Shown: positions 1 to 896, counted from the stretch's first letter. The stretch: 896 nt of DNA from Escherichia coli (GCF_003334305.1 NZ_QOWS01000065.1); one strand, 5' to 3'. Numbers and translations are program-made. Notes: a model not told the origin generated them from the sequence alone.

Positions 1-896
1 TTCGGGCGGACGCTGACTTTCCACCGGGCAGCTAAGGGTGACGTGGCGGGCGCGGTGACGGGGGTGACGGACGGCGCGGGCCGCCGTTTTCACCTGGCGC
101 TGACCACGCAGGCGCAGCGGGCGGAAGCCTTCCGTAAACAGCGCGCCACGTCTTTATCTTCCCCTGCCGGTCCCCGTTCTGCTTCCTCTTCTTCTGCTTT
201 CCCCGACACGCTGCCCGCCGGTACAGAATACGGTGCCGATAACGGTATCCGGCTGGAGGCGGTGTGGCTGACACACGACCCGGCATACCCGGATGAACAG
301 CCGACTGCGCCGCTGGCGCGCTACACGTACACGGCCAGCGGAGAACTGCGGGCGGTGTATGACCGCAGCGGAACGCAGGTGCGCGGGTTTACTTATGATG
401 CGGAGCACGCCGGGCGGATGGTGGCGCACCATTATGCGGGGAGGCCGGAGAGCTGCTACCGGTATGATGATACCGGTCGGGTGACGGAGCAGGTCAACCC
501 GGAGGGGCTGGACTACCGCTTTGAGTACGGAGAGAGCCGGGTAATCATCACGGACAGCCTGAACCGGCGGGAGGTGCTGTACACGGAAGGCGAGGGTGGC
601 CTGAAGCGGGTGGTGAAGAAGGAACATGCGGACGGGAGCATTACCCGCAGCGAGTATGATGAGGCGGGGAGGCTGAAGGCACAGACGGATGCGGCGGGGC
701 GGCGGACGGAGTACAGCCTGCATATGGCGTCGGGTGCGGTGACGGCGGTGACGGGGCCGGACGGCAGGACGGTGCGGTATGGCTATAACAGCCAGCGGCA
801 GGTGACGTCAGTGACGTACCCGGACGGGCTTCGCAGCAGCCGGGAGTATGATGAGAAGGGAAGGCTGACGGCGGAGACCTCGCGCAGCGGTGAGAC
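1..896 (+). CDS. Rhs-family YD-repeat protein, internal fragment of the conserved core (5' and 3' ends both outside the window)
   Basis: Seen in sequence: frame 1 is open across all 298 complete codons (1-894) with no stop. Translation begins FGRTLTFHRAAKGDVAGAVTGVTDGAGRRFHLALTTQAQRAEAF and ends YPDGLRSSREYDEKGRLTAETSRSGE. It contains repeated YD-repeat units (RYTYTASGELRAVYD, GFTYDAEHAGRMVAH, YRYDDTGRVTEQ, SEYDEAGRLKAQTD, VRYGYNSQRQVTSVT, REYDEKGRLTAET). Codons strongly favour G/C, especially G, at the third position (acg, gcg, cgg, ctg, gtg, gag). Established knowledge: these motifs and the conserved blocks DSLNRREVL, GLKRVVKKE and AQTDAAGRRTEY are characteristic of enterobacterial Rhs core proteins. 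No database search was run; the paralog or subfamily cannot be assigned from memory, so no gene symbol is given. Confidence 0.93.
148..207 (+). repeat. Low-complexity Ser/Pro-rich segment (TSLSSPAGPRSASSSSAFPD) encoded by a pyrimidine-rich tract, including an in-frame (tct)3 run at 187-195
   Basis: Seen in sequence: nt 151-205 are almost entirely C/T on the + strand (tctttatcttcccctgccggtccccgttctgcttcctcttcttctgctttcccc), in sharp contrast to the G-rich codons on either side. In frame 1 this gives a serine/proline-rich stretch with four consecutive Ser codons (tcc tct tct tct). Confidence 0.6.
454..495 (+). repeat. Canonical YD-repeat unit (CYRYDDTGRVTEQV)
   Basis: Frame 1 codons 152-165 match the Y-R-Y-D-x-x-G-R-(V/L) core of the YD-repeat consensus almost perfectly. 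Confidence 0.8.
646..687 (+). repeat. Canonical YD-repeat unit (RSEYDEAGRLKAQT)
   Basis: Frame 1 codons 216-229, E-Y-D-x-x-G-R-L-x-x-x-T-D motif. Its nucleotide sequence is an imperfect direct repeat of 838-879. Confidence 0.8.
838..879 (+). repeat. Canonical YD-repeat unit (SREYDEKGRLTAET)
   Basis: Frame 1 codons 280-293, E-Y-D-x-x-G-R-L motif. Shares gagtatgatgag...aggctga with 652-676. Confidence 0.8.

Follow-up and report, generated by a model that had tools for sequence, protein, structure and literature searches.

A probable RhsH-type Rhs core segment of Escherichia coli whose nearest relatives carry a predicted M91 metallopeptidase tip

Both Rhs proteins and M91 metallopeptidases have been described among type VI secretion system (T6SS) effectors. 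In Tse5 of Pseudomonas aeruginosa, N-terminal self-cleavage has been mapped experimentally to K47|P48, DUF6531 forms the N-terminal plug, and secretion requires Tse5-NT, a PAAR-like piece of 5 kDa that has no membrane module (PMC10684867). An M91 domain is described in SED_RS06335, a PAAR-Rhs-M91 protein of Salmonella Dublin SPI-19 paired with an immunity candidate that contains a transmembrane domain, and in VgrG2b of P. aeruginosa (PDB 6h56), where a C-terminal M91 metallopeptidase domain is accompanied by reported antibacterial activity (PMC8867033). An 'Rhs-Peptidase M91', Ec154_02824/02825, has been described in silico in pathogenicity island 2 of the Shiga toxin-producing E. coli (STEC) O22:H8 strain 154, with its substrate stated as unknown (bioRxiv 10.1101/2024.03.05.583533). 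For a further E. coli protein, Rhs-CT1 (Tox-MPTase4, PF15640; Ma et al. 2017), a T6SS-dependent antibacterial effect was shown experimentally, according to the passages that cite it in PMC6730261 and PMC7216683. The subject of the present analysis is a stretch of 896 nucleotides of E. coli DNA (NZ_QOWS01000065.1), analysed over its whole length and called the window below, which lies within the YD-repeat core of an Rhs gene. Our reading, to which we give a probability of roughly 0.85 taken as a whole, is that the window stems from the interior of a classical E. coli Rhs core gene of RhsH type, with the flank layout found in its relatives.

Frame 1 of the plus strand was open across the whole window, and GC content stayed at 0.63-0.67 along its full length. 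The translated product was identical in every residue to positions 219-516 of a 1420-amino-acid E. coli RhsH-type relative, and it matched the NCBIfam model NF041261 (RHS_core) with an E-value of 4.8e-167 and 558 bits over model positions 216-512 of 1261. A first-pass annotation, made from the window alone, had placed it roughly in the first third of the core and had stated that the N-terminal domain, the DPxGL motif, the tip and the immunity gene all lay outside; both statements agree with these coordinates. The score of 558 bits falls below the curated cut-off of 2000 because a fragment cannot reach it, and the full-length relative, with its frame repaired, scored 2643.9 bits over model positions 1-1261. 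In the same relative Pfam recognised DUF6531 (residues 49-126, E 1e-18) and 13 RHS_repeat matches, from which the repeat coordinates in the window were mapped with an offset of 218 residues. The YD-repeat model TIGR01643 also matched the window protein (E 5.9e-22), with one stretch at residues 203-238, and the periodicity was visible in the DNA itself as imperfect direct repeats every 192 nt, at positions 462, 654 and 846. The features of the window are as follows.

1 to 896, plus strand: internal fragment of the Rhs core open reading frame (ORF), frame 1, 298 codons, recognised from the open frame, the RHS_core match and the annotation of relatives.
151 to 201, plus strand: Ser/Pro-rich low-complexity stretch, SLSSPAGPRSASSSSAF in translation, within the part of the window that varies most among paralogous cores.
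328 to 441, plus strand: RHS/YD repeat (Pfam PF05593, residues 328-365 of the full-length relative).
463 to 555, plus strand: RHS/YD repeat beginning YDDTGRVTEQ (PF05593, residues 373-403), of direct-repeat family D1.
610 to 702, plus strand: RHS/YD repeat beginning YDEAGRLKAQ (PF05593, residues 422-452; also TIGR01643), of families D1 and D2.
727 to 828, plus strand: RHS/YD repeat (Pfam, residues 461-494) that holds G774 and A810, the only two sites at which the nearest relatives differ.
847 to 894, plus strand: start of an RHS/YD repeat, YDEKGRLTAE, cut at the window end (Pfam, residues 501-540), of families D1 and D2.

By megablast against 5426 complete E. coli genomes the segment was found in 2623, and the best matches, at 99.8% identity, lay within coding sequences annotated as 'RHS element core protein'. 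Only two differences separated the window from its nearest RhsH-type relatives, and both, G774 and A810, were synonymous. The frame was open in every paralogue compared, with codon changes that were mainly synonymous (24 synonymous against 11 non-synonymous relative to locus L006, and 2 against 0 relative to L001). The element is one that we take to be RhsH, from RefSeq product names ('RHS element core protein' and, for the next gene, 'RHS element protein dsORF-h1') and map position; the name reportedly goes back to Wang, Zhao and Hill, writing in J Bacteriol in 1998 under the title 'Rhs elements comprise three subfamilies'.

The surroundings of the gene were read from eight loci carrying the complete window at 99.7-99.8% identity, among them L001, L002 and L007-L011. 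The gene order was the same at all eight: vgrG, the RhsE core, dsORF-e4, an IS1 remnant, ISAs1, a hypothetical protein, a DUF3969 ORF, the Rhs core with the window, dsORF-h1, an ISAs1 remnant, pptA, yddH and nhoA. The vgrG of the RhsE-RhsH tandem was read at L003, where it lies directly upstream of the tandem. In these relatives the Rhs start codon is 653 nt 5' of the window and the stop codon 2713 nt 3' of its end, and all eight loci continue from the core into one particular tip, here called the h1 tip, and then into dsORF-h1. The flanks of the present copy are inferred from these relatives because no exact match to the window was found, and it probably shares them, h1 tip included.

The end of the core in the relatives bore out much of what the first-pass annotation had expected from established Rhs architecture. 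As foreseen, the ORF continues past the window into a C-terminal extension, and the core closes in a PxxxxDPxGL-type motif, YDPLQGRYITQDPIGL, which is followed after 18 residues by DSLGL (DPIG at residue 1234, DSLG at 1256). The second proline of the DPxG-x18-DPxG motif is thus replaced by serine in the relatives, while both protease aspartates are intact, and TIGR03696 matched the core end of the full-length relative with an E-value of 2e-23. The variable tip had been guessed to lie 2.5-3 kb downstream; DPIGL begins about 2.15 kb 3' of the window end and the stop codon lies at 2.71 kb. A fall in GC content past the core had likewise been anticipated, and it goes from 0.64 to about 0.32 at L001 12000-12100 (approximate coordinates), where the AT-rich variable tip sets in. 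Sequence homology between L001 and L012 stops right past DPIGLRG.

The tip of the relatives comprises 160 residues and contains HEFAH, a form of HExxH. In an alignment of 19 sequences of the tip family H84, E85 and H88 (1344, 1345 and 1348 in the full-length protein) were invariant or nearly so, and the block QSPALGLGHExxHA...EExRVI..E..AAKTL.E was invariant. Within this family 10 of the 19 sequences matched Pfam PF14891 (Peptidase_M91) at E<=0.001, the best at 6.6e-9, and 18 of the 19 did so at E<=0.1. Hafnia proteins 43-45% identical to the tip are named 'M91 family zinc metallopeptidase' by NCBI and carry a precomputed PF14891 annotation. These likenesses point to a putative M91 (NleD-like) HExxH zinc metallopeptidase domain with predicted protease activity, and a zincin fold with a botulinum-light-chain-like core is predicted for it. 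An identity with Tox-MPTase4 (Rhs-CT1) was also considered for the tip and was rejected, as PF15640 gave no match even at E<=10.

The small ORF that had been expected downstream of the tip is present as dsORF-h1, which encodes 149 amino acids and begins 12 nt past the Rhs stop codon. Its N-terminus, MMKYLMVLLSLFSGSVLG, is its sole strongly hydrophobic segment and resembles a signal peptide, and homologues were detected in Escherichia and Shigella only. dsORF-h1 is the candidate immunity protein. The tip and dsORF-h1 together form a module found in 1085 of the 5426 E. coli genomes in at least three contexts, namely behind RhsE near pptA, immediately following hcp and vgrG in the T6SS-1 island, which lies near yafV, and in truncated form; a variant at 80-90% identity occurs in about 46 genomes (for example H53, 87.9%). 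At L005, and also at L012, hcp and vgrG are followed directly by the Rhs gene inside the T6SS-1 cluster. The h1 module was located at three reference loci.

L001, 12046 to 13070: h1 module.
L005, 8001 to 12715: h1 module.
L004, 8975 to 12492: h1 module.

At L004 (strain F070; similar genomes share the arrangement) the Rhs core has lost its N-terminal part and adjoins a truncated tssM at 8975-9003, a junction equivalent to window position 579. Part of the T6SS-1 cluster is lost by this deletion, the h1 tip and dsORF-h1 are retained, and what is left of the Rhs core starts inside the window-equivalent region. A distantly related arrangement was seen in a JGI metagenome (3300056792; L013 4001-5121), where a protein of 219 residues has an M91-like domain, a hydrophobic N-terminus and a YDPxxxRWIxRDPIGE pre-toxin motif, yet lacks an Rhs shell. 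The next gene there encodes 152 amino acids; its product has an N-terminus resembling a signal peptide and is weakly similar to dsORF-h1 in the C-terminal part (E 0.019).

At the other end of the gene, the Rhs protein of the relatives begins MSGKPAARQGD, with a literal P-A-A-R at residues 5-8. Residues 51-148 align with Tse5 chain B from the first residue of that chain (E 2.3e-15), and N50|P51 (PVNP...) of the E. coli protein aligns with the Tse5 cleavage site K47|P48. The head, of about 50 residues, matches the PAAR-like Tse5-NT in length, and its end coincides with the aligned cleavage site. Taken with the features of Tse5-NT given above, this alignment argues for a Tse5-like minimal head in the E. 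coli protein. The first-pass annotation had allowed for PAAR or another domain specifying the route of secretion; the literal P-A-A-R and the DUF6531 plug are in keeping with this, but a recognisable Pfam PAAR_motif did not materialise.

A mode of action can be proposed from these parts. The PAAR-like head would mount the Rhs protein on the VgrG spike of the T6SS, by which the protein would be delivered. The 298 residues of the window are YD repeats that, following the N-terminal plug, build up the first stretch of the beta-cocoon shell, and a C-terminal aspartyl-protease plug (DPIG-x18-DSLG) would self-cleave the tip. The encapsulated and cleaved M91 domain would then be released into the periplasm of a rival Gram-negative cell, where it would cleave an envelope protein, and exported dsORF-h1 would neutralise the toxin in the periplasm of kin cells. 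We infer the periplasmic site from the head, which like that of Tse5 lacks a transmembrane translocation module, and from the signal-like N-terminus of dsORF-h1. The fusion of the tip to an Rhs shell and its pairing with a small protein bearing a putative signal peptide suggest that it is presumably antibacterial rather than a host-directed effector of type III secretion.

A number of results weigh against this reading, and they are given here and with the alternatives that follow. The h1 tip alone matched PF14891 with an E-value of only 0.002-0.0035, below normal significance, and a Foldseek search of the tip against the PDB returned nothing significant. No activity, secretion or immunity data for the h1 tip were found in the literature. 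The Pfam PAAR_motif gave no match to the N-terminus of the full-length relative at E<=10. For dsORF-h1 no Pfam or NCBIfam family was found, and its AlphaFold2 model, built from a shallow alignment, failed with a predicted local distance difference test (pLDDT) score of 43.9. The remaining adverse results concern the integrity of the gene and exchange between Rhs cores.

An adenine tract lies in Rhs codons 41-43 of the relatives (L001 8467-8503), about 534 nt 5' of the window start. It has seven adenines (A7), giving a frameshifted pseudogene, in L001, L002, L007, L009 and L017, and eight (A8), which keeps the tract in frame, in L006, L008, L010 and L011. At four of the eight sampled near-identical loci (L001, L002, L007 and L009) the A7 frameshift removes the PAAR-like head, and at L011, where A8 is intact, the Rhs coding sequence is frameshifted elsewhere and the tip end is annotated as a separate ORF before dsORF-h1. 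With such frameshifts at A7 loci and at L011, the present copy may be non-functional. A decaying pseudogene without present function, in which the window frame is merely unbroken so far, is thus the first alternative to be weighed, and insertions and deletions in the neighbourhood speak for it as well: RhsE, next to the RhsH element, is interrupted by IS3, IS1 and ISAs1 remnants lie around the element, and genomes of the L004 type have the core truncated in the window region. The exact A7 context was present in 73 of 578 records (about 13% of carriers). Against decay, exact A8 was present in 488 of 578, and intact proteins of 1420 amino acids are annotated in L006, L008 and L010. Nor do the mostly synonymous changes and the frame that stays open in all paralogues compared look like decay, and neither the tip's catalytic motifs nor the two protease aspartates have been lost. 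On balance we regard loss of function through decay as somewhat doubtful, and an RhsH-type core gene remains the preferred reading.

The second alternative is a recombinant Rhs copy as the origin of the window, with a tip that is not of the h1/M91 kind but YdcD-linked or another one, known or unknown. That such exchanges occur is evident from cores about 97% identical to the window, which carry the h1 tip in L005 and a YdcD-linked tip in L012 and L017. Since tips differ already at 97% core identity, the window does not fix its own tip, and the earlier statement that nothing in the window speaks to the nature of the tip therefore holds. L017 in particular shares the upstream context (ISAs1, the hypothetical protein, DUF3969 and an A7 head) but ends in a YdcD-type tip. 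No 100% match to the window was found in the 5426 complete E. coli genomes, in a plasmid set or in a phage set, the last of which held no window match, and exact 200-nt scans with window positions 697-896 of GTDB representative genomes and JGI metagenomes came back empty. In the plasmid collection the best match was NZ_OL790696.1 (H81), a 4.8-Mb record that is evidently a mislabelled chromosome and has the window at 99.8% identity. The source is accordingly taken to be an E. coli or Shigella-like chromosome outside those sampled.

The two distinguishing bases of the window bear directly on this alternative. G774 and A810 occurred in none of the sampled RhsH-type copies and are the states of the L012 core, which belongs to the T6SS-1 locus of O103:H2 strain 12009 and has a different tip followed by YdcD. 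Window positions 343-856 are identical to that core, and the differences from it are concentrated at positions 16-342, including 193-197 and 227-237; positions 740-850 recur at 100% identity in further Rhs cores across many genomes (532 records at >=99%). Positions 1-773 and 811-896, on the other hand, are identical to the RhsH type, and 24 RhsH-type diagnostic positions lie in 1-342, with one more at 857. Because RhsH-type states are found at 1-342 and at 857, any foreign patch is limited to 343-856 and may span only 37 nt. The bases shared with L012, set between RhsH-type flanking positions, thus suggest a short gene-conversion patch from a paralogue; it looks like conversion between Rhs core copies and, in showing that exchange takes place, counts against our reading. 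Given that the h1 tip and dsORF-h1 followed at 8/8 of the sampled near-identical loci, we consider a recombinant copy with another tip unlikely, and retain an RhsH-type core with the flanks of its relatives.

A further idea concerns the adenine tract itself. In A7 alleles the head ORF has 51 codons, and its TGA shares bases (GTGA) with the GTG at which the remaining 1369 codons open; this GTG lies one residue past the position aligned to Tse5 K47|P48; a -1 slip on the A7 tract would also restore the frame. On this basis the tract could be, rather than mere decay, a slip-strand switch that splits the gene all but exactly at its natural site of N-terminal self-cleavage. Coupled translation, or slippage (-1 or transcriptional), could then yield both pieces, which might still assemble; alternatively, the tract could phase-vary how the toxin is loaded onto the T6SS spike. 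We hold this to be highly improbable.

Finally, as far as the relatives show, an origin of the YD repeats in a TcC subunit, in a teneurin-like protein or in some further YD protein instead of Rhs can be dismissed, in agreement with the first-pass annotation: a YD-repeat shell is common to all of these and Pfam TEN_YD-shell gave weak matches in the full-length relative (E about 6-7), but the RHS_core score (2644 bits against a cut-off of 2000) and the ranking of PDB homologues, in which T6SS Rhs effectors matched at E-values of 1e-120 to 1e-43 (Tse5 1.8e-120, RhsA 7.7e-90) and YenC2 at 1.4e-5, confined to the last 70 residues of the core, decide against it, and no tcA, tcB or other tc genes were found in 19-20 kb of locus context, where the neighbours are vgrG and T6SS genes.

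Some features of the window and its surroundings stand apart from these questions. An antisense ORF of 189 codons occupies positions 154-723 on the minus strand and extends to 322 codons in L001; the other ORFs of the window are short or antisense. It was annotated at none of the RefSeq loci inspected, and we regard it as a by-product of the sense frame, which is GC-rich. No Rfam family matched the window. Between ISAs1 and the Rhs start (L001 7355-8267) lies an AT-rich segment encoding the 150-amino-acid WP_000960005, with a Gly-rich hydrophobic N-terminus, and a 64-amino-acid 'DUF3969 family protein'. Neither gave a Pfam or NCBIfam match, and the pair accompanies the Rhs head in L017 too. 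The two may be the remnant of an orphan toxin fragment and its immunity gene. Orphan toxin/immunity modules further downstream, which had also been suggested, did not appear in the sampled loci, where only ISAs1 remnants were seen.

Taken together, the earlier interpretation is supported: the window is a routine Rhs core segment, and the parts seen in the flanks of near-identical genomes are of known kinds. In silico descriptions of the locus, its M91 tip and the split of the gene exist already, and for Salmonella Rhs-M91 effectors have been listed. What is mildly novel lies outside the window: a predicted periplasmic M91 protease, and an A-tract that splits the gene at a natural cleavage site. 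An Rhs-linked M91 zincin, an exported immunity candidate and a Tse5-like head without transmembrane helices together make periplasmic action a testable prediction. The case also illustrates how little a segment of Rhs core tells of the tip, which differs already among cores of 97% identity, and the window itself has a conversion patch.

Among known systems, Tse5 (PDB 8cp6) is the closest solved homologue. It shares with the E. coli protein a short PAAR-like N-terminal fragment of about 47-50 residues without transmembrane helices, the DUF6531 plug and a DPxG-x18/19-DxxG aspartyl protease motif. The tips differ, that of Tse5 being a pore-forming toxin and that of the E. coli protein a predicted zincin-like domain, and N-terminal cleavage of the latter is a prediction from the alignment. 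NleD, a type III effector of enteropathogenic and enterohaemorrhagic E. coli and a member of the M91 family (PF14891), resembles the tip in its HExxH motif and in hidden Markov model matches at the level of the family. In contrast to NleD, the E. coli tip is joined to an Rhs shell and has a small protein with a putative signal peptide as its partner, and the tip's own match to the family is weak (E 0.002). Rhs-CT1, going by the citing passages mentioned above, is likewise an E. coli PAAR-Rhs protein with a metallopeptidase tip, of another peptidase family (PF15640). SED_RS06335 and VgrG2b, as T6SS effectors described with an M91 metallopeptidase domain, offer a precedent for a periplasmic site.

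The arrangement in STEC strain 154, compared here by description, is similar: a VgrG is accompanied by a pair of Rhs genes, both with an immunity candidate downstream, and the second Rhs of the pair ends in an M91 HExxH domain. Ec154_02824/02825 is split by a premature stop, with loss of the PAAR motif, and in this it resembles the A7 relatives of the window. The preprint presumes a cytoplasmic target, whereas the signal-like N-terminus of the immunity candidate examined here points to the periplasm. Closest of all is the RhsH/dsORF-h1 element itself, which occupies the same chromosomal site, behind RhsE/dsORF-e4 and ahead of ISAs1 (H-repeat) and pptA, and matches the window at 99.8% nucleotide identity, the difference consisting in G774 and A810.

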